Shown here piece by piece: positions 30,709-59,311 of a stretch of 64,000 nt of DNA. The position numbers and the translations under genes were made by a program. Position 1 is the stretch's first letter, and the number at the start of each line of letters is the position of its first letter. This DNA is from Eledone cirrhosa (taxonomy: Eukaryota), in contig OZ024748.1 in NCBI GenBank assembly GCA_964016885.1, positions 14,756,001 to 14,820,000 of the forward strand, written 5' to 3'. The notes under the pieces were generated by a model. It made no database searches. It was not told the DNA's origin and saw nothing but the letters and a program-made list of their open reading frames with translations.

Positions 30709-31238
30709 AAGGAAGGGAGGTAAGGAACCAGGTGGACCATAATGCACCAGAGTACTCAATACTATGGGTAGTAGAGTGGGTAATAGCTAGTTCTGAACTA
30801 GCTGTCGAAACGGCCGGAGCTCAGCCATCGGGGACCTAACTCTCTTCATATATATATATATATATCATCATCATTTTCATCATTTCATTTTACGTCCGCT
30901 TTTCCCTGCTTGAAAACAATGCATGGTTTCAAATTAAGGTAATGACCATTTCACAGATGGGTGGTTCAGGATCTATTTAAATGTTATAGACCCAACTTCA
31001 GGCCAATTGCTTATCAATATATACACCCTCCCTTAGCATAGAGTGCAGATTTTGTCACCTTATGCAGTAAACAACAAATCTACTGAACCACCTATCATTT
31101 TAATATATAAGTTTATCCCAGATTCAATCGGGGGTAACCACAGTAAGTAAGGTAGTCAATACATAGCAGAGTATAAATATTTAATATAGAAATGGCTTCT
31201 ACTGGACTAGAACTGTTTCATTCGGGAGAAATCATCAG

Positions 31239-31289
31239 GGCTTCCTGATGATTTCTCCTGAATGAAACTGTTCTACTCCTGTAGAAGCC
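31239..31289 (+). ncRNA. Type I hammerhead ribozyme inside a fold-back cassette (31177-31306)
   Basis: Stem I ggcttc/gaagcc; CTGATGA; ttc/gaa stem II; GAAAC...GTA. Confidence 0.75.
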
Positions 31290-31443
31290 ATTTTTATATT
31301 AAATATATATATATATGTATGTATTTGACGAATGAGATACAAGAGTACTCAATACTGAAGTAGAATTTAAATGTTCATTTATTATGGTTAAGTAGTGAGT
31401 CTTGTTAATGTAGAGTTTCAGCTGCACCTGTGCGCACACAGGA

Positions 31444-33207: not shown

Positions 33208-34349
33208 TTAGGAAAGTTATGGGAACCACATTTCATTTGGTGGAGCAATGAACTAGTGAAAACAAGAAATTAATGTGTCACATGTTAAGTATTTCCTGAT
33301 CCTCTAATTCTGTTTATTTAACCCTTTTGATACCAATACATGAATCTGCACGACCTAATGTTTTAGGTTGTTGACTTTACAATCGTAATGTTGTTAGTTT
33401 GATTCCTGGACAGGGTACTGCATTGTGATCTTGAGCAAAACACTTTATTTCGTGTTTCTCCAGTACACTCAGTTAAGAGTGAGTACAGGCAGTTAATCCT
33501 GTGATAGACCAATGTAGTGTCTAGGGAGTGTCTTGTGCTCTCAGTCACTTTCTGCCATAGAAACCAGGGATGAGTTCCAGTGTAATGAGCCTTCAGCTTA
33601 GAACAGACCTTGACTATAACCAACACACCCAAATCTGCCTCAGGTTCTATGAAACTAAACTATCCATTTTATAGGGTTCCTATGTGAATTAAAATCTTTC
33701 AACATAATTTTATCAGAAAAGTTTAATAATGCAATGATTAATAATTATAGTAAATCCATAAAAAAATCATACATTAATTAATTTGAAACACATGAATGTG
33801 TGGAAAAAGGGACATAAAAACGATGATGATGATGTGTTACATTAAAAATATGGTAATGGAATGTTTAAGGTTAGAGAAGCTAAGCAGAAATTTGTGGTAC
33901 AGATCATGTCCTCTTCTGATAGGGTGTAATGTACAGCAGTATGGCAGATATATGTATTAGTATATCCTTTCATGTCTATGTTATACTGGTGGGTAGATCA
34001 GATAAAGATGTTATCATATCTCTCCACGTGTTTACTATGGTGTATGTATGGCAGATAACAGTATTATTTTAATGAGTTGGTGCAGTCAATAATCTGATTC
34101 TGAAGCAGGTTAAATATAAAGTAAGTCTTTGGGGAATACTAATAGATGATTATAATTTGTTTGTGTTGTTACTGAATTCTTTTAAGCTGCTTACTCATGG
34201 GTGTTGAGTTCGAATCCATGGCAAGATATGTGTTGTGATTCTATCTAGGCATGATACCTAATCCTACATTACTTCAGTTGCTGGAGATAAAAATAATATT
34301 TTATCAAAGATGAGAGTTACTTATTACATGTTTAACCCTTTGATTACTA

Positions 34350-34535
34350 CGAGGGTTGACTGAAATGTTCATAGGCTTACTATGAAGGAGTAATGCTAGA
34401 GCTGTGAAATCATGCATGCATTGACTTATTAATAACTGCATTGTTTCATTTGAGCATTTGAGGGAAAAATAAACTTCATTTGGGCATTCAATGAGAGTAT
34501 CTTGGACAGCCTATGAAATTTTCTGCTAACCTTTT
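34350..34535. mobile_element. mariner-type MITE; second copy at 46868-47064
   Basis: ta|cgagggttgactgaaatgttcataggc ... gcctatgaaattttctgctaacc; homologous interior in both copies. Confidence 0.7.
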
Positions 34536-34627
34536 TATTCTATATTTCTAAGGAAAAAAATATTACGATTCTATCCATTCCTATCTCTATGGGTTTATAT
34601 AGCCAACTTGTACAAATATTTTTGTGA

Positions 34628-34877
34628 TGGCATGTGGCTTAATTGTTAGAGAATTGGATTCGCAACTGTGATGTTGCAAGTTCAATTACTGGACCAGGCA
34701 ATGTGTTATGCTCCTTAAGTAAGACACTTAATTTCATGTTGCTCCATCTGCCAGGAATTGCAACCAGTAGATAGTATCAGAAATTGAAAAGACCAATGAA
34801 GACATTGTTTCTTTGGTCTGATTTGACAAGTCCCTCCCTATTCAATAAGTAAACAAGGTCTGTGATCTTGTCAATTG
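34628..34877 (+). mobile_element. CORE-like SINE with a different 3' half; related pieces at 15335-15460, 20400-20500, 58292-58503
   Basis: tRNA-like head, aagacacttaatttca CORE block, then ttgcaacc..gatagta..aagaccaa..cattgtttc(c/t)ttggtc..tttgac. Confidence 0.7.
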
Positions 34878-34994
34878 TACAACTATTTTATAGTTAAATT
34901 TGCATTGGAGCAGCTTACATAAAGTTAACATACTTTCAATATTATAAAGTGTATTTATTTGGAGAGAAATGTGGATGGAAGTGTAGAGAAATCT

Positions 34995-35490
34995 TGTGTG
35001 TATGTGTGTGTGGCTGTGTGAGTGTGTGTGGCTGTGTGAGTGTGTGTGGCTGTGTGAGTGGGTGTGGCTGTGTGAGTGGGTGTGGCTGTGTGAGTGGGTG
35101 TGGCTGTGTGAGTGTGTGTGGCTGTGTGAGTGTGTGTGGCTGTGTGAGTGTGTGTGGCTGTGTGAGTGTGTGTGGCTGTGTGAGTGTGTGTGGCTGTGTG
35201 AGTGTGTGTGGCTGTGTGAGTGTGTGTGGCTGTGTGAGTGTGTGTGGCTGTGTGAGTGTGTGTCTGTGTGAGAGTGTGTCTGTGTGAGAGTGTGTGTCTG
35301 TGTGAGAGTGTGTGTCTGTGTGAGAGTGTGTGTCTGTGAGAGTGTGTGTCTGTGAGTGTGTGTGTCTGTGAGTGTGTGTGTCTGTGAGAGTGTGTACCTG
35401 TGTGAGAGTTTGTGACTGTGTGAGAGTTTCTGACTGTGTGACTGTATGAGTGTGCGCCTGTGTGAGTATGTAAGTGTGTGCCTGTGTGTA
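34995..35490. repeat. 18-bp (tgtgtggctgtgtgagtg)n tandem array
   Basis: Direct inspection. Confidence 0.95.
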
Positions 35491-35644
35491 TACTGAGCAA
35501 ATTACTCTGTGCATTTAAATGATTAAATCTTGGTAGAAGGCACCAGCAATGGCTTGAAGATAAATATTTCAGCTCACTGGTTCCAATATAAGATTTACAA
35601 GACAGGTCGAATGACTGCCTCATACATTCCATTTTTGGTACAAT

Positions 35645-36010
35645 ATCTACAGCTGGATGCTCTTCCTAACACCAACCACTTCATGATATATACCAAGTAC
35701 ATTTTAGTGTAGCACCACCACTACAGCTTTACAGACTGGGTTGGTGTATTTGTTATGGCACCAGCACTACCACTTTAGAGAGTGAGTAAAGTGTATTTAT
35801 CATGGCACACCCACTACCACTTTAAAGTCTGGGTTGAGTGAATTTAATTGTGGCACCACCATTACAGCTTTACAGAGAGGGTGAGGTGTATTTTTCATGG
35901 CACCAGCGCTATCACTTTACAGAGTGAGTAAAGTGTATTTATCGTTGGACACCCACTACCACTTCATAGTGCGGGTTGAGTGATTTTAATTGTGGAACCA
36001 CCACTACCAA
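35645..36010 (-). repeat. SINE fragment followed by a ~46-bp minisatellite derived from the SINE internal module
   Basis: ctacagctggatgctcttcctaacaccaacc, then ~7 units of gcacc..cactaccactttacagagtgag..gtgtattt. Confidence 0.7.
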
Positions 36011-36514
36011 TTTTCAACACTAGGGTGCTCATTGAGTGCTTGGCCAGGCTGAGGGGGACAGTGATATGAAGGGGGATGATATATGGTCTTGCTTGTTGAA
36101 AGAGGGGGTGAGAGAGAGAAGAGGCCTTATGTTTCATTTTCATTTCTATATTGATCTCTCTCTCTCCCTCTCTCTCATCACACACAACACAAAACCTTCA
36201 CTTCATGTTAAGAATATTCTGGTTGTTGCTAGCTTCGTTCCTGTAAATATAGACTTACAGCATTACTACACAGAACAACAAACCTGAAGAATGATGTCGT
36301 AACAGAAGAAAGAAAGAAAGCAAGAGTTCTAGATGTTAGCATATCATAAATTTGCTTTGAAAATAATAAGAATGTTATTTATTCGTAAGTTACTCAGAAA
36401 TGAAAAAGGTAGGGGTAATCTATGTCTGTGTGTCTGCTAGAGAAAGAGTTGGGGGAGGGGCGGAAGTTTCTACAGCTATAGCACCACAGTTCTGCCTATG
36501 TGTAAATGATGATG

Positions 36515-36551
<37 letters not shown>

Positions 36552-37261
36552 TTAAAAACATACCGAAAGTAAAAACGATGAAGCAGATATTTGAGAGTGA
36601 CAGCCTTGATGGAAAAATTGTTGTTAACGATATATTATTTAATAGATGTTATAATTAGGTAAGGTATAAATTGTTATGATAACACAGATGGTGATGATGG
36701 CAGAGGGAGGGGGAAGAGCTAATTATCTTTAATAACTCTTTAGTATATTTCCTACTCTTTCAAGAACTATGTCTAATGTACTCTAAAAGATGACAACATT
36801 TCCCAAATCTTTGATGTAAACACTTCCATGATAAGAATGTATATTTTGTGTGTTTATGTGAGCGTGTGTGTGTATATATATACCATTGTACGTCTAACTA
36901 AGGTAAGATTATGTGTGTGTATGTATGAATATATATATATATATACACACACAGACACACGCACACACACACACAAACACACACATATATATAGTTTTTG
37001 GTGTGATGGTAAGACACATAACTTAGTGGTTAAGGTATTTGGCACACAATTACAAGGTTTCATGTATATATATATCATCATCACCATCAGCACCATTTAA
37101 TGTCCATTTTCTAAACTAGCATGGGTTAGTAAGGTTGTCCTATTTGAGGCATATCAGGTCAGATGTCTTTCTCATACAAAACTGATTTTGGTTTGTGATG
37201 CCAACCACATTTACATTGAATACTGGGTGTTTTTCGTCATGATACCTACATGATCACAATA

Positions 37262-37500
37262 CATGTGATGTGCATGGATGATGATTGTTGGGTGAAGAAG
37301 TGCCAGGAAATCCCAGAGGTAGGGAACTGCAATAGAAGTAGACCAAGGAAGACCTGGGCAGAGGTGCTGAGAACTAATCTCAAATCACTAAATCTGACAG
37401 AGCAGATGGCGAAGTAATGTGAAGAGTGGAGGGGCACTGTGCTGAAAAGGACCCATCCAATCTATTGAAGCATGAAAAAAAAGGACATAAAAGTGAAGAT
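37262..37500 (+). mobile_element. Degenerate RTE LINE 3' fragment, same family as 3581-3789
   Basis: gaagaagtgccaggaaat..agaccaaggaagacctgggcagaggtg (RPRKTWAEV) with an in-frame stop. Confidence 0.75.
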
Positions 37501-38063
37501 ATTTATATAAAATGTGTGTGTGTAAAAGTGGTCGTGTAGATGACACAGCACAAAGCACCCAGCACACACTGTAAATGTGGTTGGCGTTTGGAAAAGCATC
37601 CAGCCATAGAAAACAAGCTAAAATCATTTTTGTGTGAGTGAATCATGGTCCCTTAACATGATCCCTCACAAAGGGATAGCCCATCCTACCCATGCTAGTG
37701 TGGAAGGCGGATGTTAAATGATGATGATGATGACTATATGTATGTGTGTGCGTGTTCAAAATTGTAAGAAAGCCAAGGATAAGAAATTATTATTTATTCA
37801 TACATCTCTATAAACGTTTCTATATGACTAGATTATCACGTACATCAAGCTTATCTCATCTTACCAAAGAAAATAGTGAAGTACTACACCATAACCTCTC
37901 ACACACACACACACATATATATATATAAGAAAGTGAGGTTTTTTTACAAAATGAAAAATAACCGAGGTGTCCTACACGAGTGAAAGTATAAAGAAAAAAA
38001 GATGAAATCGAAAATTCAACTGGAGTCTTATTTTTTTTTTTAAATATATATATTTATTTGGTT

Positions 38064-38102
38064 CCTTTACCGGTTTCGCAGTTCTTCTGCTTTTCAAAAG
38101 TA
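38064..38102 (-). ncRNA. Minimal type I hammerhead ribozyme, U3-A8 variant
   Basis: ctt-TTGAAAA-gcag/ctgc stem II-GAAA-palindromic accggt-GUA-aag; stem I only 3 bp. Confidence 0.65.
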
Positions 38103-38269
38103 GAGTTGAGAGTGTGTATGTGTGTTAAAAATTGTAAGAAAGCCCAGGATAAGAAATTATTATTTATTCATACATCTCTATAAACGTTTCTATATGACTA
38201 GATTATCACGTACATCAAGCTTATCTCATCTTACCAAAGAAAATAGTGAAGTACTACACTATAACCTCT

Positions 38270-38333
<64 letters not shown>

Positions 38334-39228
38334 TGCAGGCATTGCTGTGTGGTTAAGGAGTTGACTTTGCAACCACATGGTTTTAGTTTGACTTTGCAGT
38401 TATCTATATTCCTGACCAACACAATATGAATAGTAGTTGAACAGATTTGTTTAGTATAACCCAAACTTGAATAGAACTAAACTTGTTTGCTCTAATTTAC
38501 ATAATAGTGGTGTAACCATTGGCAACATTTCATGCTTCTATGAATTAATTAAATGTTGCCATGTTTGCATTGCTGTTATGCAAATTGAGGCAGATCAATT
38601 TAGTTTATGTGTACGTGTGTGTGTGTGTGTATGAAATATTGATATATATTTGCATGTTAACAATTTCAAAAAATCTATATTCTATAAAAGTACCAGTAAA
38701 AGGAAGTCACTAGTTGTATAAATATATATTTATAAACAGTAACAACACAAATCAACCAATACATGGCTGTCACATTCTTTTGTTCGCTCATTCTTTCTCT
38801 CTGAAGTGAGAAAGCTCAGGAAGATGCTGCTTCATAATCCTAATGGAGAAGCACTGAAAGACACAGATTATTTTAGATGTTGTGTCATGATCCCAGCAGA
38901 TAAAATTGAAAGAAGGTTACTCCCAGATGAGAGCGAGGCAGAAGTACTGAAAGAGACAGTTCATTTTGGATGTGGTGTCATGGTCCCAGCAGATAAAATT
39001 GAAAAAGTGTTATTCAAAATTTAATTTAGTTATACCTAGATTGGATAAATCTATAAATATGACACCTTAAATGAAATGAGTAACACTGGTGAAATTAATC
39101 ATGTCAATTTGTCTTTATCTATCCACAAATAGAATAACGTAGTTTAAACTAAATTGCTGACTTTTCATGATGTGCTAAAATTGTGTTTACTTTAAATTAA
39201 CTGTATCTATCGCTCGCCCCCGCCCCAC

Positions 39229-39316
<88 letters not shown>

Positions 39317-39449
39317 GAGAGAGAGAGAGAGGGGGGAGAAAGAGAGGAATGACTTCTACAGAATTAGAACTGTTTCGTTCATATGAAATAATCAGGAATG
39401 TCTGATGATTTCATGGAAGTGAAAAAGTTCTAGTCCTGTAAAAGACATT

Positions 39450-40577
<1,128 letters not shown>

Positions 40578-40580
<3 letters not shown>

Positions 40581-42360
40581 ATGAAATATAAGAATCAAAG
40601 AACTGTTCAAAACATTATTGTGCTTACAGCTGTTTCCTCCAAACCGAGGTTTGGATTCTTCGGAGCAATTTATTAATGCATGGACAGTTATATGACCTCC
40701 TTTTCAGCCGAGGGACATACCAATACATATTCAAACATTGATACATATTCAAACATTGTGGGTCAACATTCATTACAAAATTTAGAGTGGCAGTACACAC
40801 TTCGAGATTACATTTATATTAATAGGTACAATCAAAAATCAAAGATATAGGTTAAAGTACAACATGAAGATAAGTGGTTATATAGTGCAAATGTTATATG
40901 TGTGGCACGCATGTGCGTCTTGTTTATATAGTGTGGCAGAGAGATATGTGTGGTAGAGGCACTTAGGTAGGTAAATAAGAGTGTTAGGTTGGTAGATCTG
41001 GTGGCAAAGTCTTTATATGATTGATGTAGTCTGTGTGTGGAGAAATATTATAAGCATTAAAGATAGGACTGCGGATTGACCTTTGGCCTGCCTGGGGACG
41101 ATTTTCTTTCGACATCCAATGTAGCAAGCGATGACCCAGATCTTACCAGAGATCATTGGGTCCTGAAGCAATCCTGCAATCACCGCGCCTGGTTATATGA
41201 GCAGACTACAACCACAGAGATCATTAATTTAGAATCCTCGCTCATCATCTATAATTTCCATTTGTAGCACCTTAAGATGGGTTAATCCACCTTAATAATA
41301 ATATGATCACCTTCAGCATAATTTAGTTAAACTACTCTATAGTTAGTACACTTTATGCTTTAATAGTCTCTTTTGGAGGGTGCACCTCACCATAGAATTT
41401 AGGGTCCATATTGGGACACATTTTAATGGCTAGATATAGAAACCCCAGAGTTACCTCCCCGCATGCATTAACTCCCCTTAGCCACACACACACTTCCGGT
41501 ATTCAATGGCGTCTCTCGAAACGTAACAACCTCCTGTATCGAACTAAAGAACACCAGACTACGATCTCTAACTGGATTGTCGTGGATTATGTGAAAGGCA
41601 TATAATCGAAATATACACTCCCTTGATCATGAAAATGCCGAAGTACATGAATTACTTGACATCCCTGCGTTGTGCATCTCCAATACTTATAACACTTTTA
41701 ATGCTTGCACTATCTTTAATGCTTATAATATTTCTCCACACACAGACTACATCAATCATATAAAGACTTTGCCACCAGATCTACCAACCTAACACTCTTA
41801 TTTACCTACCTAAGTGCCTCTACCACACATATCTCTCTGCCACACTATATAAACAAGACGCACATGCGTGCCACACATATAACATTTGCACTATATAACC
41901 ACTTATCTTCATGTTGTACTTTAACCTATATCTTTGATTTTTGATTGTACCTATTAATATAAATGTAATCTCGAAGTGTGTACTGCCACTCTAAATTTTG
42001 TAATGAATGTTGACCCACAATGTTTGAATATGTATCAATGTTTGAATATGTATTGGTATGTCCCTCGGCTGAAAAGGAGGTCATATAACTGTCCATGCAT
42101 TAATAAATTGCTCCGAAGAATCCAAACCTCGGTTTGGAGGAAACAGCTGTAAGCACAATAATGTTTTGAACAGTTCTTTGATTCTTATATTTCATATAAC
42201 TGCTCTGTAAATCAGCTGATGTTTTTACATTGAGCTACTTAACTTACTGGTAATAAGGTAGTAATACATTACTGCCTACCACTATTTAGGGTGTGTGTAA
42301 AATACTTACAACTGCTTAAGGTTTTGTGTTTACATAACCATAAATAGTATAACTAATACT
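40578..42360 (+). mobile_element. Probable Penelope-like element remnant: inverted pseudo-LTR pair with hammerhead and 3' tail
   Basis: 489-bp inverted arms at 40578-41066 and 41710-42198, HHR-like motif at 42109-42155, ~160-bp tail homologous to 58925-59060, (TA)n on both sides; no intact RT or GIY-YIG ORF seen. Confidence 0.7.
42109..42155 (+). ncRNA. Minimal type I hammerhead-like ribozyme; mirror copy at 40621-40667 on minus
   Basis: Stem I tgct/agca; core CCGAAGA (U4C); 8-bp stem II tccaaacc/ggtttgga; GAAA; palindromic acagctgt; GUA. Confidence 0.7.
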
Positions 42361-42372
42361 ATATATATATAT

Positions 42373-42422
<50 letters not shown>

Positions 42423-42940
42423 GCTATTAATAATTGTGATTAGTTAGACCATTATTCAACATATATACTGCAAATTTACATGATTTGTCCAGTACTAAAT
42501 ATACTATAAACATCTGAATCACAGAGCCCATTTTTAGCTATTCCCTGCTAAATAATCTGACGATGTTAAGTGTTGAAAAGAAGTTTGAATGTTTCAAAGA
42601 CTGCAAGAGCAAAATATAGATAGTAGGTTTAATTCTTGTAGAGGAAAGGGGTGTTACTGAATTTGGTATGGCTGGGGAGAGAAGAACTAGTTGGAACACA
42701 ATACAAATACGTCACAGTCATTATCAAGTATGTTGGATCAAAATCAAAACTCTTAGAGTGTTTGGCAAACATCCGCTTAAAGGAAAAATTTATTACCGAT
42801 TCTTCTTAAAACATGATTTCAAGAGAAGGCACAGCTTATTAAAGTAGATAGCAGAAGCAGTTTTAAATCAATAGATGTGTTAGTTTGCTATATAGAGGAA
42901 ATACTTTGATGTAAATGAAGTTAGAATATGATTGATTTAA

Positions 42941-43132
42941 CCCTTTTATTACCATTTTTCTAATAAAAGACACTGCCAGTGATTTCCAATAAGTTTGAAA
43001 ATAATCAAGAATTTGATGGGTTTTGTAGTAGAACTAATTTTGTCAATATTACATCGATGTGTGGAACATAACTTAAAATAGGTTATAACATAAAATTATG
43101 GCTGTTTCAAGACAGTTTTGTCTAAAAGGGGG
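42941..43132. mobile_element. piggyBac-like MITE, short copy
   Basis: ttaa|cccttttattacc ... taaaaggggg|ttaa; interior similar to 14154-14672. Confidence 0.65.
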
Positions 43133-44014
43133 TTAACGAGACAATAACAACAATAATAGACACTATGCTGTTATCCAAGAACAGAAATTGTATGTGTGTA
43201 TTTATAACTTACTGTATATACTTGAATATAAACTGACCATTATTTTATGTTTGAGAAATGGGCAAAAATCGAAACCCCATTTATAAAGCGAGGCAGCTAA
43301 TCAACCCATAATGTTTAGCTTGCGCAGTTTTGAAATTCTCATGGGTGATGAATATATTTTTGAAGTTTTGATATTTTGATATTTAAGATATTTTAAATGT
43401 CATTTAGAGCATAGTTTGTTTCAGAACTCCGTTATGTAAGTAATCATTTTTTACTAATTTCCAACGATTTTGAAGACCACATTCATTCAAAACACATCAA
43501 AATAGAAAAACCGAATTTCATGTTGAAAGTGAAACCAGTGTAATATTCACCTCAAAAGTGAAAATATTTTAACACCTCATTTACATAGAATCTTGAAGTT
43601 ACCATTCATTTTTTTTGTTGTCACATATTCCTCAGCTTATATAGAAGTATATAATGTGTGTTATTGGACAATTGTTCAGAGGAAAATCAGAAGAGAATGA
43701 TTGTGGTGGGAGGTGGAGAGGTGATGTCGGAGGCAGGGAGAAGAAGAGTGAGATAAAGAGAAAGAGAAAGAAGAGGAGTAAGAGAGAGAGAGGGAGAAAG
43801 TAATAGAGTAAATTAAAGGTGAGAGAAAGAGAGAGTAATAGCAAATGAGGAGCAAGAGAGAAAGGGGGAAGAGAGTAATAGAGATGAATGAATGAGAAGC
43901 AAGAGAAAGAGAGGGAGAGAGAAAGATAGAATGATGAATAAGAGAAGGAAAGAGAGTAAGAAAGAGAAAGAGGAATTTGTGTGAATATTTTAATGTCTTT
44001 ATGTATTTAAATAT

Positions 44015-44185
44015 GATTTCTAGTATAGGCACAAGGCCAGTAATTTGGGAGGAGGGAAAAGTCAGTTAGGTCAACCCCAATACGTTACTGGTGCTTTATT
44101 TTATCAACCCCTTAAGGATGAAAGGCAAAGTTAACCCTGGCGGGATTTGAACTCAGACTGCAAAGGGCCGTAACTCTATGCTGCT
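44015..44185 (-). mobile_element. Meta-domain-like SINE
   Basis: aggatgaaaggcaaagttaaccctggcgggatttgaactcag. Confidence 0.8.
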
Positions 44186-44447
44186 TAAATATAATCCACC
44201 TGTGTTACACTATATTATGACACACCTGAGTCTCCTTGTTTAGTGACATACATGTGTGTTAAACTGTATTATGACATATCTATGTCACACTGGTGTATTG
44301 AGAGATATATCAATAGAGGGGGAGTGATAGAGTAGAGTACAGGGGGAGAGGAGAGAGGTAGGATGGAGAGTGACAGAGTAGAAAAGAGAGGGAGAGATAA
44401 AGAGGAAGATAGAAAGAGAGAGAAACAGAAAGAGAAAAGAGAAGCAC

Positions 44448-44531
44448 AGTAGTAGTAGTAATAGTGGCAGTAGCATCATCATCAGCAGCAGTAGTAACAG
44501 TAGCAGTAACACTAGTAGTAGTAGCAGCAGC

Positions 44532-44625
<94 letters not shown>

Positions 44626-44712
44626 ACACTGGTAGTAGTAGTAGTAGTAGTAGTAGTAACACTGGTAGTAGTAGTAGTAGTAGTAGTATCAGTAGCAGTA
44701 GCAGCAGTAATA
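44448..44712. repeat. (AGT)n microsatellite
   Basis: Direct inspection. Confidence 0.95.
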
Positions 44713-44889
44713 GGAGGAGGAGAATCTGCAACAAAAAGTGATCAGGTGACAGCTGTATCGGTGAGGTTTTGTCTCAGAACCTTCCTCAGGGGTCCAGCTG
44801 TTACCAATTTCTGTTTTGAAATTTCCTTTGTTTGAAATTAAACTAATTTTCACAAGTTATATAGGAAAAGGAAGGGGGACATCCACCCA

Positions 44890-45185
44890 CGTAACATTGG
44901 TGAATCCATGTGACCCCTCATTTTCTCTACCCCATTCTCCTTAACATGGGTGATTCCATGTGGTCCTTCATTTTCTCCATTCCATCTCCTTTAACATAGG
45001 GGGCTCCATGTGGCTCTTCATTTTCTATATCCTCACCCCCTTAACATGGGTGAATCCATGTGGGTCTTCATTTTCTCCATCCCAATTCCCATTTACATGG
45101 GTTAATCCATGTGGCTCTGCATTTTCTCCATTCCCACCCCACCACCTTAACATGGGTGACTCCACATGGTTCTTCATTTTCTTCT
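44890..45185. repeat. ~50-bp minisatellite, 6 copies, hairpin-forming unit
   Basis: ttaacatgg-gtgaat-ccatgtgg..ttcattttctc units at ~44892, 44942, 44992, 45042, 45093, 45148. Confidence 0.9.
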
Positions 45186-45916
45186 ATAATGGGGAGTGAA
45201 GAATGAGGGCTTAGGGAGTGAGGAAGGAGGGAATGAGAGAATGAGGTGTGAAGAATGAGAGAATGCGAGTGGAGAATGAGGGAATGAGAGAACAGGGAAA
45301 TGTGGAGTCGAGAATGAGAGAATGGGTAGTGAAGAATTGGTGGGGCATGAAGAATGAATGAGGGAACCAGGACAATAAGTCGCAATGTTTTCTTTACAAC
45401 CATGTATGACCTTGGGCTAAACAACAAAAACAACAAACATTATCATCAATGTTTTCTTTAATTACATGCATCCTTGAAGAATAAACTCGTTAGATGTAAA
45501 AGGTCAATCAATGGTCCAGTCCCATCTTTGGAATTTATATTTTATTACACTTTAATTAATTAACAAAAAGAATGAAAAACCGAGAGAAAAATAAAGAAAG
45601 AAAATTATTAATAAACAAAAACAAAGAAAAATGGTTTCCAACCCCAATATCTATCTTTTCAGAGATGAAAGTTAAGTCAAATGTGTGTGCACGTTTGTGG
45701 TGTGTGTGTGTGTATGTAGGTAAGTATGTATATTACGCTTATATGTTGAGATACGATGGGAAAGTCAATTATATATATATATATATATATATAATATACA
45801 CACACACATGCACACACATGCACACACACATATATATATACTGGTAACACTGAGTATCACTAGATTCCTAAAAGTTTTGCTTTTTTTTAAATTTATATTT
45901 ACACACACCCACCCAC

Positions 45917-45953
<37 letters not shown>

Positions 45954-46429
45954 AGGCACAAACACATACAAACATGCACATATGCAAACAAAAACATATA
46001 GATACACATCATGAATTTCCATGTTATTCTTAAAAAAATTATAAAATTTATGATAAAATTTAAGCTCTACCACCAAATATTGATTTAAAAAAATATATTT
46101 GTTTATTTTTTTGCCAAGAAAAACCATGAACTTTCTCCTTTGAACAAGAAAAGAAAACTTTAAACAGATTCGACATGGCAGCAAACATTATTTGGAATAT
46201 ATCAACATCGTTTTTTACATGTCTGTATTTATACGACATTTTCATTGGGGAATTTTCATATTTTCTTGCTCACAGCCAGCCACGATCAGCTGATATAAAC
46301 TGGAAAACTTTGTTATTCGAAACAACTTTTGATACATAAAAAAAAAACTGGCTCTGGTTCTATGAAAATTCACTCATATTTAAGGGGCTCCTATTTAAAT
46401 TAAAATCTTACAGCATTACTTTTGTTGAA

Positions 46430-46610
46430 TGACAGTATTGGTAGAACGTCAGACAACATGCTTTGCGGCATAGAGTTAATACCCTTTACGTTCTGGGTTC
46501 AAATCCTGCCGAGGTTAACTTTGCCTTTCATCTTTACAGGGTCAATAAAATAAAGCACCAGTAATGCACGGGAGGTAATTGCTGCCCTTGTGCCAAAAGT
46601 AGAAACAATT
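46430..46610 (+). mobile_element. Meta-domain-like SINE
   Basis: B box gggttcaaatcc and family core. Confidence 0.8.
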
Positions 46611-47159
46611 ATTTTACAAGATAGTTCGGACACACAAGTGTGAAGGTGTTACAGTTGAGGGTCAAAACACCCAATGTATGTTGGTCACCATCTGAGGACA
46701 TCAACACACTTTTGGCCAAGGCTATGTTTACTGAAGGAGAATGAATATGAGGCATCTTCTTGAAGTTGTAATTATGCCTGACGAACCAGCGAACTGTTAC
46801 TAGTAGGAAAAATGGATGTTAAGCGAGGGCGATGATAATATTCCATGACTATTTATTATTTTTCCTATGAGGGTCAAATGAAAGGTTCATAGGCTGACTA
46901 TAAAGGAGTGATGCTAGAACTGTGAAATCTTGAAAGCATTAATTTCAAATCTTCTTATTAATAAATGCATTCTTCTTTCTAGGGATTATGTTGAAAAATA
47001 AACCTCATTTTATCATTCCATGAGAGTGTATTTGATAGCCTATGAACTTTCCAGCCAACACTTATACATATATATATATATGTGATATCAATACTTATAT
47101 ATATATATATATACACACACACATATATATTCAGAATATATATCTATATATGAATAAAT

Positions 47160-47542
47160 ATCATCATCATTTTACGTCCGCTTTTCCCTGCTTGCAAGGG
47201 TGAGACGGGAACTGATTCTGGCTTGATTTCTACAGCTGGATGCCCTTCCTAACACCAACCTCATTTACAATGAGTGCTGGGTGCTTTTTTTCTGTGGCGC
47301 CTACACGTCCACTTTACAGTGTGGGCTGGGTGCTTTTTTTTTTGCCGTGGCACCTCCACAACAACTTTGCAGTGGAATGATAGGGACCCCAGTCCTATCA
47401 ACTCATTTCTACAGCTGAGTAAACTGGAGCAATGTGAAATAAAGTGTCTTGCTCTTGGAAACAACACATCACCCAGTCTGAGAATTGAACTCACAACCTT
47501 TCGATTGCAAGCCCAATGCTAACCTCTAAGCCATGTTCCTCC
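47160..47542 (-). mobile_element. Full-length CORE-like SINE with a duplicated internal module
   Basis: Family consensus plus an extra gctgggtgcttttt..gtggc.cct..ac module. Confidence 0.9.
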
Positions 47543-48163
47543 ATATATATATATTCATATATATATGCATATATCAATATATGAATACACATATATATTC
47601 ATATATATATACACATACACACACACACATATATATACACACATATTTACATATGCACATACATACATATATATATATATTCATATGCACATATATACAT
47701 ACATACATTACATTCATTTACTACAATCTTATTTCATTACACTGTCACCAACAACTTTGAAAAGAAAGTAGAGAAAAATATAGAGGTGGGTAGGGAGTAA
47801 AAAAACCTAAAACCTACATTCTAGAAAACTTGGTAGAACTGTTACCGATTGTTGCAAAACGTCTATGTCTAAGAGGCATTAATGTAACTCTATTCCACAA
47901 AGTTACATAATGATAATTCTGAATTAAGTGGAAGAATAAGTGTAAATGTCACTCTGTGAGTGTATATGGCACATTCTTTAGCTCTGTGAAGATGATAAAG
48001 AATCTCTTGGAGGGAATGGTTACTGGGTAATTATATCTCAGTAGCTTCTGTATTCATTTTATTTTCTCAAAGCAAGCTACAGCTAGCATGTAGCATGGAG
48101 AGAATGGTTTACACTCAATGTTATGACAAGATATTTTAATAATATCAATATATGTGTGTGTGT

Positions 48164-52005: not shown

Positions 52006-53705
52006 AACTTTGAACTTTGAATAACTTTGAAATGTTTTGGCCAGTATTGGCCCAGGCCATGTCTAACTTAATAGCACCACCTGGCGAAGTCTTTCATTCA
52101 GGATTTGGACACCATGGCCCATTCGAGAAGAGAATTACTGTTTGCGGAGACATATCCGGGTGTGGGTGGTTTGTCCGGGATTACTTGGAGGAATTTATCC
52201 AAAGATTTCTTGAATTTTGTGTGGTCAGTTTCTGTTTTGACGTGTCCTGGTGTGATGTTGAAGAGAGCAGGTCCGATTGAGGTGAAATAATTGTGCCGTA
52301 TTGTTGTTATGAGTTGCGATTTAGATTTTTGAATGGGACGGATAGCACGGGGCCCAAGCCTTGGGTGTATCTTGAAGGCGATGCCAACATCATTTGGGCA
52401 GTGATGATGGAACATTTTCCACATCATGCAGATAATATAACGCTCACGGCGACGTTGGAGTGAGTAAAGTTTCAGGTTTTCTAATCGACCCCAGTAGTCA
52501 AGGTCTGACATGCCATCTATCTTTTTCGTGATTGCCCTTTGAGGAGCTTCAAGTTTCATGATACTTTGTTTCGTGTGGGGAGACCACAGTGGACAACAGT
52601 ATTCAAGGTGTGGTCGGGCAAAAGTAGAGAAGAGAAGGATAATGGTGCGGAAATCTCTCGACTGGAAGGTTCTGAGGATCCAGGAACACATTCTGCGGGC
52701 CATGTCAACTTTGCTGCTTATATGCGTGGTCCAGCTTATGTTGCTGTCCACGGTTACTCCCAAGTCTCTGATGTTGTTAGATGCCACGAGAGTTTCCCCG
52801 GAGGGAAGGGAGTACGGGAGTTTCAGAGTATCCTCTTTTCCAAAGTGGATCAGTTCGAATTTGTCTTCGTTCAATAACATGTTGTTCTTTTCTGCCCATT
52901 GGGTAACAGCCAGTAGGTCTGACTGAAGGCTTATCCGGTCATCCACGCCATTGATGACCTTTTGGAGCTTGGAATCATCAGCGAAAATTTTAATGTTGCT
53001 GTGTTTGATGATGTCAGTGATGTCATTAATATAGATGATGAAGAGAAGTGGGCCCAACACAGTGCCTTGTGGGACCCCACTACTGACTTTGGCTGGGCTT
53101 GATTTGACTCCCTCAACTACAACATGCTGGGTTCTGTTTGACAGGAAGCTCTTGATCCACTGCAGCAGCTTTCCAGTGACACCAATATTGGACAGCTTTC
53201 TCAGTAGAATGTTATGATCAACCCTGTCAAAAGCCTTGCTGAAATCAAGGTAGATAACATCAGTGTTGGAACCCTCTCCCAAGGCTCTCAAAATGTCATC
53301 AAAGTGATGCAGTAGCTGTGTCAGGCAATCCCTTCCATTACGGAATCCATGCTGGTTGGAGTTCAGCATATTGTTACTCTCAAGGAAGTGGGTCATTCGC
53401 GATCTCACCACTCTCTCAAATACCTTAATGATATGAGAGGTGAGTGAGATTGGACGGTAATTCACGGCAAGGGATTTGTTTACCTTTTTGAAAACTGGGA
53501 CAACAGACTGGGATAGAAGGTTTTCTGGCACATATCCAGCATCCAGTGAGTTCCGCCACAGATTGGCAAGAGGAGATGCAAGTTGGTGTTGACACGCCTT
53601 CAAGACACAAGCAGGGAACCTATCGGGACCTACTGCTGAATTATGCTTGATTTCCTTTATTGCCGCCAAGACATCAGGGGCGCCAAACGTTATGTCCGAT
53701 AAGGT
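52006..53705 (-). mobile_element. 5'-truncated CR1/L2-group non-LTR retrotransposon (LINE)
   Basis: Open RT frame, ~90-bp 3' UTR with ggcca-atac-tggcc hairpin and (ttcaaag)-type terminal repeats; (TA)n on both sides. Confidence 0.93.
52098..53705 (-). CDS. LINE ORF2 reverse transcriptase (C-terminal ~535 codons; no endonuclease domain, no true start)
   Basis: [47 protein letters not shown] and RPHLEY motifs with no internal stop. Confidence 0.92.
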
Positions 53706-53792
53706 GTATATATATACAAATATATATATACATATATATATACATATATATATAAATATAATATACATATATATATACAAATTATATATACA

Positions 53793-53826
<34 letters not shown>

Positions 53827-53843
53827 CACATATATATATATAC

Positions 53844-53874
<31 letters not shown>

Positions 53875-53930
53875 CATATATATATATAATACACATATAT
53901 ATATACATATAGAGATATACATATATATAT

Positions 53931-54284
53931 GGAGGCACATGGCTTAGTGGTTAGAGCATTGGCCTTGCAATCGAAAGGTTGTGAGTTCAATTCTAAGACT
54001 GGGTGATGTGTTGTTTCCTTGAGCAAGACACTTTATTTCCCATTGCTCCAGTTTACTCAGCTGTAGAAATGAGATGAGAGGGGACTGCGGTCCCTTATCA
54101 TTCCACTGTAAAGTGGTCGTGGAGGTGCCACGGCAAAAAAAAGCACCCAGCACTCACTGTAAATGAGGTTGGTGTTAGGAAGGGCATCCAGCTGTAGAAA
54201 TCAAGCCAGAATCAGTTCCCGGTCCCACCCTTGCAAGCATGGGAAAAAGCGGACGTAAAATGAAATGAAAATGAATGAAATGAT
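53931..54284 (+). mobile_element. Full-length CORE-like SINE with several small indels relative to sister copies
   Basis: Family consensus. Confidence 0.88.
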
Positions 54285-55612: not shown

Positions 55613-56368
55613 TATATATACATATATATATTAAATATACACACATATATATACACACATATATATATACATATATATACATACATATATATATATACAT
55701 ACATAATATATATATACAAATATATATATACATACATATATATACATATATATATATGTACATATATATATACAAATATATATATATATACATATTTCGT
55801 TTCTGAATTTGTTTAGCAAGATTCTTTATCTGAAATCGTGTGTTGAAACCGATATTGTTATACTTTGGGAGGGTCATGTTGCCAATAAGAAACACACGCA
55901 CCAGTTGCTTTCACTTCAATTTAATTAATATATATTTTATAAATTTACAAATTTATAAATTTCTGGTTGGTTGGTTGGTTCCACAACCAGATAAGTTGTT
56001 TATATATATATAGTCATAGTTCTTTCGTCACACACTCTGTGACCTCTTCAGTGACTGGGGATTTCTTTCTTCGTTTCTGTGCCTTTCCTTTTCTTCTATC
56101 CTACGCCATTTTGTTTGTGTGTGGGTCGATAAAATAAAGTACCAGTAATGTACTGTGTAATTGCTGGCCTATGTGCCAATAGGAGAAACAATTATATAAT
56201 CAATAATTTCTCTGAAGCAACCGGATGAAACATGTGTAAGAGTTATATAAAGAACTTGTTTTTTAGCGGCTTGTAATTCCTTATTGATGACATTATATAA
56301 CCCACACACAAACAAAATGGCGTAGGATAGAAGAAAGGAAAGGCACAGAAACGAAGAAAGAAATCCCC

Positions 56369-56415
56369 AGTCACTGAAGAGGGTCACAGATGTGTGTGAC
56401 GAAAGAACTATGACT
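56369..56415 (+). ncRNA. Minimal type I hammerhead-like motif; mirror copy at 56012-56056 on minus
   Basis: Stem I agtca/tgact; CTGAAGA; stem II gtcaca/tgtgac; GAAA-g-aa-CUA. Confidence 0.6.
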
Positions 56416-56856
56416 AGTATATATATAAACAACTATCTGGTTGTGGAACCAACCAACCAACCAGAAATTTATAAATTTGTAAATTTATAAATATATATTA
56501 AATTAAATTGAAGTGAAAGCAACTGGTGCGTGTGTTTCTTAATGGCAACATGACCCTCCCAAAGTATAACAATATATATACATACATATATATATATATA
56601 CACATATATATATATATACATATATATACACATATATATATATACACATATATATACACATATATATATACACACACATATATATATACATATATATACA
56701 CATATATATATACACATATATATATATATACATACATATATATATATAACATACATATATATAATATACATATATAATATATATATACATATATATACTA
56801 CATTAATATATATACATATATATATATATACACACATATATATATTACACACACAC

Positions 56857-58290: not shown

Positions 58291-59311
58291 CGATCGACTT
58301 TCGTCAAATTGGACCAAGGAAGCAATGTTTTCGTTGGTCTTTCCAGTTGCTAGTACTATCTATCGGTCGCAACTCCAGGTAGGCAGAGCAACATGTAATA
58401 AAGTCTCTTGTTCAAGGACATAACGCATCGCCTGGTCCAGGAATCGTACTCACAACCTCAAGATTGTGAATCCAATTATCTAACCACTCAGCCACACGGC
58501 TTCACTCTCAGCCACACGCCTATATATATTTGGTGGAGCATAAACACAGGCAGACACACACACACACCTATATACAGAGAGAGGGAGAGGTTGGGGCAGA
58601 ATTTATTAAATCTATACATGTGTGTGTATGATGATTGTAAGTTTGTTGTATTTATGGCTCACATCTGTATAGGTTTAGCTGCCTGCCTCATATGGGGTTC
58701 CACAGGGGTTTGAAATGAAGGTTTGTTAATTTCATTGAAGTGCCAAATATAATCAATACTGTTTAGTGAATTGGAATAACATTTATTGAACATTGGGTCT
58801 GTTTGTATTTCTACTCTGAGTTTCTTAGACTCATTTTTTTCTGGTTATGTCAAGAATAGGATAAGAAACTCCAACTAACAAATCAACTGGACTCAATTCT
58901 GACAAAATACATTTACATATATATAAGAATAATACTATTTATAGTTATGTATATACTATAAACAACTATAAACAGGAAAGGTCAGTAATTTATTACTACC
59001 TTATAACCAGTAAGAGAAATAGCTCAATGTAAGAACATCAGTTGTTTTACAGAGCAGGAAAATTTTTTTATTTATTTACATATATATATATATATACATA
59101 TGTATACATATATACGTATGTGTGCATGTGTGTATATATATATATATATATGATGATGATTACATATACAGGAAGAGTTTCTAGCTATAGAAACCAAGCC
59201 AAAATAAATTCTGTATTTGCAAGAAATGAACATCTGATCTGGTTTCTTCGATAAGAGTGCAACTCGTCTAACCCAAGCTAGCATGGAAAAACGGACATTA
59301 AATGATTATGA

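Follow-up and report, generated by a model that had tools for sequence, protein, structure and literature searches.

Paired fixed 3′ ends in head-to-head insertions of a Penelope-like element in Eledone cirrhosa

An inverted insertion between TA microsatellites

The window, by which we mean the whole stretch of 64,000 nucleotides analysed, comes from Eledone cirrhosa (assembly GCA_964016885.1, contig OZ024748.1, positions 14,756,001 to 14,820,000 of the forward strand). The insertion studied here consists of two 5′-truncated copies of one element placed head to head. The left copy (40578–41066, reverse strand; 489 nt) ends without a tail at a position that we call site A; the right copy (41065–42362, forward strand) comprises about 1.3 kb of non-coding pLTR and ends, with a tail, at a second position, site B; and the two meet at 41065–41066 in a 2-nt microhomology (AG). 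An alignment of the arms, 40578–41066 and 41710–42198, shows them to be 100% complementary along all 489 nt, separated by 643 nt, and the perfect inverted repeat described in the initial annotation thus stands. The same is true of its one-sided tail: the right arm goes on for another 164 nt (42199–42362, forward strand), the interval between sites A and B, before it reaches the TA run on the right (42360–42409), while the left arm directly abuts the TA array on the left (39450–40582). Both flanks are the target microsatellite. Site A (42186–42198, forward strand) holds the TA-rich template TATATTTCATATA, the origin of the TTTCATATA reiterations discussed below, and is where, without exception among the resolved insertions of the family, one arm has its fixed 3′ end; site B (42350–42362, forward strand) is the fixed 3′ end of the other arm and has the bases TAT in common with the TA run. 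Just 3′ of site A, a GCTC...GAGC hairpin is predicted at 42202–42235 (forward strand), and in full-length tandem copies the tail lies directly upstream of the ORF.

The spacer (41067–41709, forward strand) is non-coding pLTR DNA that the right arm alone reaches. A faint GIY-YIG trace had been suspected in it, and this suspicion did not hold: the family's own protein gives no tblastn match in the spacer, and the HMM search of its six frames gave no match with a positive score, which rules it out as an endonuclease remnant. The spacer and the right end each have at least 40 genomic copies at 99–100% identity, the scoring having covered the 40 top candidates out of 1462 and 1138, respectively. 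The right arm departs from the majority of the family alignment columns at only 8 of 1121 positions, and the window copy is therefore young; it holds no ORF sequence. The two arms have in common a minor allele that is found in 11 of 156 arms overall. If transcribed, the arms may form double-stranded RNA and serve as a substrate for ADAR or siRNA pathways; none of the public runs listed with the family sequence is an RNA run. An ORF scan of the window, which is blind to introns, revealed no host gene, the ORFs of at least 110 aa being simple repeats or retroelement pieces.

Several other features of the window deserve mention. A second head-to-head palindrome, of a different family, lies between TA arrays at 55795–56575; it has an extension on the left arm only and carries a hammerhead with a canonical core (CTGAAGA) at 56051 on the reverse strand, with a counterpart near 56374 on the forward strand. 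Directly left of the TA array, at 39349–39455, two hammerhead-like motifs (CTGATGA/CTGATTA) form a small head-to-head pair that is older and resembles family 5 below; similar sequence is found near 31172–31292. At 58983–59057, a 75-nt reverse-strand match (89%) to the tail segment 42200–42274 is the remnant of an older copy from this family or a sister one, and an open frame with a non-LTR-type RT (52098–54032, reverse strand) is 5′-truncated into a TA array; a similar frame occurs at another fetched locus (L045).

The parent element and its hammerhead-like motif

Comparison of the spacer and the right end with the genome gave many near-identical copies and, elsewhere in the genome, the full element, and the earlier reading of the locus as a young, 5′-truncated Penelope-like element (PLE) insertion with an inverted pLTR proved correct. 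At the fetched loci, the parent unit, arranged in partial tandems, is 4198–4199 nt long, with an 819-aa ORF (RT and GIY-YIG) and a non-coding pLTR of about 1.74 kb. Its protein has 301 homologues at E≤0.001, and the predicted model (pLDDT 87) has TERT structures as its top Foldseek matches (E about 2e-8). The telomerase-like RT in the ORF of full copies has a YRDD motif. Pfam gave no match on the family-1 protein itself; among 12 aligned homologues, one hits RVT_1 and one hits GIY-YIG (PF01541). The C-terminal GIY-YIG domain, a putative endonuclease, lies in the same ORF as the RT and has the pattern VIY...YVG...R...H...E...N when aligned with the homologues. A homodimer prediction for residues 9–480 scored 0.00 and weighs neither way. 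Pieces of other PLE-type GIY-YIG/RT ORFs adjoin family-1 insertions at L042:7384-8193, L058:1105-2876 and L060:530-1411.

The Hydra clade of C-terminal EN+ PLEs is defined, in the available text of Craig et al. 2021 (PMC8557442), by RWK, DKT, a CxCX5C linker, CxxC and CxH around the E and N residues, and the absence of CCHH. The family-1 protein has RWR38, ADKT122, CNCRANRTC678 (CxCX5C), CNLC (CxxC) and CQH (CxH), with RWR in place of RWK being a conservative change, and no cysteine pair was seen by eye between the GIY and YIG equivalents in the alignment with homologues. The insertions have the traits of EN+ PLEs, namely partial tandems, 5′ truncation, an inverted copy and a one-sided tail, and nearly all A and B ends of the family copies run into TA. 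The likeness to the clade as described in PMC8557442 thus covers the single ORF with RT and C-terminal GIY-YIG-type domain, the RW[K/R], DKT, CxCX5C, CxxC and CxH motifs, the (TA)n target and a hammerhead in the pLTR; the family differs in its RWR, its Asn-rich inserts, an atypical hammerhead core and a unit of 4.2 kb, about 1.74 kb of it non-coding, against a size generally below 3 kb, a trait that is descriptive rather than diagnostic. On these sequence motifs we place the family as a young Hydra-clade EN+ Penelope-like element. Hydra-1_Obim, listed in the available text of PMC8557442 without a pLTR and with one end, looks by eye nearer to family 3 below than to family 1. Family sequence at about 98–99% is also present in runs from separate studies labelled as several different organisms, for which related species, mixed samples or horizontal transfer may all account.

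A perfect long inverted repeat flanked by TA runs could also call to mind a MITE or a DNA transposon whose termini are long inverted repeats, and the initial annotation had allowed for symmetric repeats in other copies. Arm lengths and joints, however, differ from copy to copy with no fixed symmetric termini, the tail is always at one end, and the parent encodes RT and GIY-YIG but no transposase; we regard this explanation as having next to no chance of being right.

As the initial annotation had pointed out, each arm contains a hammerhead-like motif of the form TGCT-CCGAAGA-stem II-GAAA-CAGCTG-TA-AGCA, at 42109–42155 on the forward strand (core at 42113, predicted cut after 42151) and at 40621–40667 on the reverse strand (core at 40663). 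Our descriptor for the motif matched three times in the window and 0–2 times in each of 20 shuffled windows (mean 0.35); Rfam gave no hammerhead match at E≤1 within 34000–48000, only microsatellite-driven miRNA matches below gathering scores. The three-helix layout is intact, and loop III changes from CAGCTG to CAATTG between families with the palindrome kept, and in folding of the monomer stem II alone is stable (z about -1.1 to -1.7). The layout is that of the minimal type I hammerheads which Cervera and de la Pena (2014, PMC4209133, available text) described from metazoan PLEs, with a 4-bp stem I, an 8-bp stem II, an extra base after A9 and a short palindromic loop III suited to dimers. Unlike these, nearly all copies of the family have C for U at position 4 and A.G for G10.1-C11.1, and thus depart from the consensus CUGANGA with G10.1-C11.1. 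The variant core CCGAAGA occurs in at least 249 of 261 motif matches, overlapping loci counted; G8U, also considered as a family trait, was rejected as a minor variant seen in three matches. U4C is a natural hammerhead variant with much lower activity in vitro (PMC3088659, available text), and with so atypical a core, self-cleavage in the family is uncertain. The predicted cut falls 47 nt upstream of site A, so a cleaved RNA could not template the A or B ends, which agrees with PMC11167929.

Pairing of ends and relation of the arms across copies

The clean 3′ ends of family 1 all fall at site A (42198 in the window) or at site B (42362). Among 72 head-to-head insertions, 69 combine one A end with one B end, and neither A+A nor B+B pairs were found; the remaining three each have one end at an internal position, in an assembly gap or where the fetched stretch runs out. 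Some of the loci had been found with a query that contained the tail, and the bias-free subsets were therefore counted apart: A+B pairs make up 37 of 37 resolved insertions selected by the ORF (P=7e-12 under a coin toss) and 19 of 19 selected by the spacer. Another 25 family-1 insertions are lone arms (16 B, 9 A). An apparent A+A pair on one contig (C1) was rejected on inspection, being an A+B pair with internal reiteration. A search for target-site duplications flagged 4 of the 69 insertions; only two of these are convincing (16 and 44 nt), and they fit staggered nicks.

The same pairing is seen in related families, of which families 2, 3 and 5 were counted together with family 1, family 4 (719 aa) lying outside the count. 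Family 2 (81% protein identity; 28 loci) has 12 A+B pairs, one B+B pair and one A end paired with an internal end, the others being single or unresolved. Family 3 (35%; 15 insertions) has A+B in all 10 resolved cases, and family 5 (38%; 14 loci) has five A+B pairs, called from motif orientation only, one ambiguous case and the rest unresolved; the tail is about 70 nt in both. This adds 27 A+B pairs in three families of 35–81% protein identity, for a total of about 96 loci in four families. The exceptions are one B+B pair (L213), one ambiguous case (L262) and two A ends with an internal partner (C2_44426500 and L218). In families 3 and 5, the pLTR has a fixed stretch of 1.5–2.5 kb resembling a TA/TG microsatellite, which is copied with the element (L237, L251 and sister loci).

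The recurrence of this layout, with different joints, at about 96 loci bears on the possibility that the window insertion is a fold-back chimera of long reads or an assembly error. The arms are 100% identical, and the Logan contigs of four runs, from four independent studies, include none that spans the joint of the window insertion; in family 2, the inverted repeat of the B+B case (G000:C3:34061500-34071499) extends, palindrome-like, about 130 nt into the flank, for which reason we take that locus to be a DNA-level palindrome or an assembly fold-back. The flanks of the window insertion, on the other hand, differ, its ends are asymmetric and at the family's two fixed sites, and the contigs of all four studies contain the family sequence. 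We think an artefact very improbable.

Separate priming by two unlinked complexes, or a second insertion into an already occupied TA tract, the arms being made alike afterwards by gene conversion, would seem plausible for a hot target such as (TA)n, and nested same-strand pieces do occur at three loci (L168, L200 and L262). Such events should nevertheless produce A+A and B+B pairs as often as A+B pairs, and there are none in the 69 family-1 cases. The two arms of an insertion derive from a common source. Over 93,839 nt of overlap in 61 insertions, the two arms of an insertion show 110 differences, compared with a mean of 944 to the arms of other insertions (41 versus 227 in the first locus set alone, with some arms counted twice), and 87 variants are private to the two arms of a single insertion. 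The partner is the closest arm in only 44 of the 61 insertions, many overlaps being too short to tell. Conversion between close inverted repeats would also yield shared private variants, and later gene conversion could be the source of variants common to both arms; by multi-copy variants, however, the two arms of an insertion belong to the same subfamily. On balance, we consider unlinked events quite unlikely.

The published view, proposed in PMC3846280 and PMC8557442, is that a single cDNA gives the inverted arm by folding back or by self-priming, for which an antisense template may serve, and that the endonuclease trims one end to leave a one-sided tail. It accounts for the identity of the arms and their shared rare variants, and a few joints do start at one position in both arms (e.g. 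C4_20884500, L173 and L181). Against it, the A arm extends further 5′ than the tailed B arm in 30 of the 69 insertions, and 12 of these longer A arms have no tail at all; with such non-nested arms, neither can be a fold-back copy of the other. The overlap of the arms within an insertion reaches 4 kb, and 49 of the 69 joints have 1–8 nt of microhomology. A collision model, in which RT primed at B is halted by a complex at A, was tried and found no support: 5 of 166 5′ ends fall within the 33 nt around A, no excess over the local density.

The A ends themselves point to initiation rather than trimming. Template reiteration is found at 28 of 80 A ends and 1 of 86 B ends, and family 1 repeats the unit TTTCATATA, family 2 the unit CT, in each case what the family's own template predicts; this marks site A as a start of synthesis from the target primer. 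One locus (L200, G000:C1:211715000-211724999) has four TTTCATATA units inside one of its arms, at site A and ahead of the tail, and slippage therefore also happens during synthesis through A. Other retroelements, too, are known to slip at their 3′ ends. A genome-wide count of the reiteration pattern was not specific (467 versus 724 for a reversed control), with 17 of 20 distinct places inspected adjoining the element. Insertions with a single arm are also informative: the far joint has ATATGAA, which would be an abortive A-primed piece, in 6 of 15 B-only insertions and in none of 9 A-only insertions, and one A-only insertion (L157) carries a B-primed piece; the A signature is absent in the other 9 of the 15 B-only insertions. 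Templated reiteration at A, together with abortive A pieces at far joints, indicates initiation at A, and we judge fold-back of one cDNA to be unlikely, albeit less so than the other alternatives.

Both sites are followed, a few bases 3′, by a predicted GCUC...GAGC hairpin in families 1–3; in full copies, the second one lies after site B, has a weak fold energy and is absent from the window copy. Family 5 has an ACUC...GAGU hairpin at A and a different one at B, which is not closed by GCUC/GAGC. These folds were noticed after the fact, and since a comparison of families 1 and 2 shows a change on both sides in just 2 of the 40 pairs counted, the support comes from conservation more than from covariation; most pairs of the B hairpin, being invariant between the two families, say nothing for structure.

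Proposed mechanism and comparison with known systems

We propose, with a probability of roughly 0.75, that insertion proceeds from both cut ends of the target, each priming reverse transcription, at A in one case and, 164 nt further 3′, at B in the other. The GIY-YIG domain would nick both strands within (TA)n, and each 3′-TA end of the target would pair with a short UA-rich template, that of A or that of B, probably defined by the GCUC/GAGC hairpin that directly follows each site on its 3′ side. The two cDNAs would halt early at random and then join via a few bases of microhomology. They would come from one donor, the same RNA or a pair of RNAs, probably within one ribonucleoprotein, and the template of the A and B ends would be uncleaved RNA, with the hammerhead passively carried along. 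Whether this extends to an obligate, asymmetric two-ended priming in Penelope-like elements, with two hairpin-marked RNA starts, one RT for each and telomerase-like repeat addition at A, is a step further, towards which the evidence leans slightly. If true, head-to-head arms with a one-sided tail would, across the class, be a direct product of insertion, and neither an antisense template nor fold-back would be needed. The window locus itself is ordinary; the genome, however, has Hydra-clade ORFs that are intact and very young, and the reiterative copying of a short template by a sister group of telomerase bears on the origin of repeat addition.

The closest analogy for priming from both sides is twin priming of L1, in which both target strands prime reverse transcription and the product is an inversion joined by microhomology. 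There, annealing of the second primer takes place at internal sites that vary, and the arms are free of overlap, whereas family 1 has two fixed starts and arms with as much as 4 kb in common.

Among PLEs, the inverted pLTR with a one-sided tail of 30–40 nt has already been published (PMC8557442, PMC3846280), and the origin of head-to-head repeats with such a tail is named as an open question in the available text of both papers. Pen2a_Av (PMC3846280; also the legend of Fig. 2 in PMC8557442) has, like the insertions described here, a 5′-truncated inverted copy head to head with a tail at one end. Compared with the published tails, those of family 1 (164 nt) and of families 3 and 5 (about 70 nt) are longer, and unlike in insertions of the Pen2a_Av type as described there, one tail per insertion is the rule rather than an option and the arms are often non-nested. 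A literature search that covered few subscription papers returned neither strict A+B pairing nor twin priming in a Penelope-like element, and the available portions of bioRxiv 10.64898/2026.07.22.740005 and PMC2377424 have no bearing on the rule. What the copies studied here add is the strict rule of one A and one B end per insertion.

Mechanistically, the best match is PAc, a Poseidon element of Anolis (Frangieh et al. 2024, PMC11167929). In vitro, both strands are cut and extended, synthesis starts at two sites that define the tail, and hammerhead cleavage is not needed; two internal RT start sites defining a tail and an AT-rich target are thus common to PAc and family 1. In the available text of that study, the start site does not differ between top strand and bottom strand, and neither a strict pairing of A and B per insertion nor reiterative copying is reported; the family-1 sites, moreover, lie upstream of the ORF and each is followed by a hairpin. 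The A+B rule makes a sharp prediction, namely that every event has a start at A and a start at B, both beside a short hairpin, and the assay established for PAc could test it directly.
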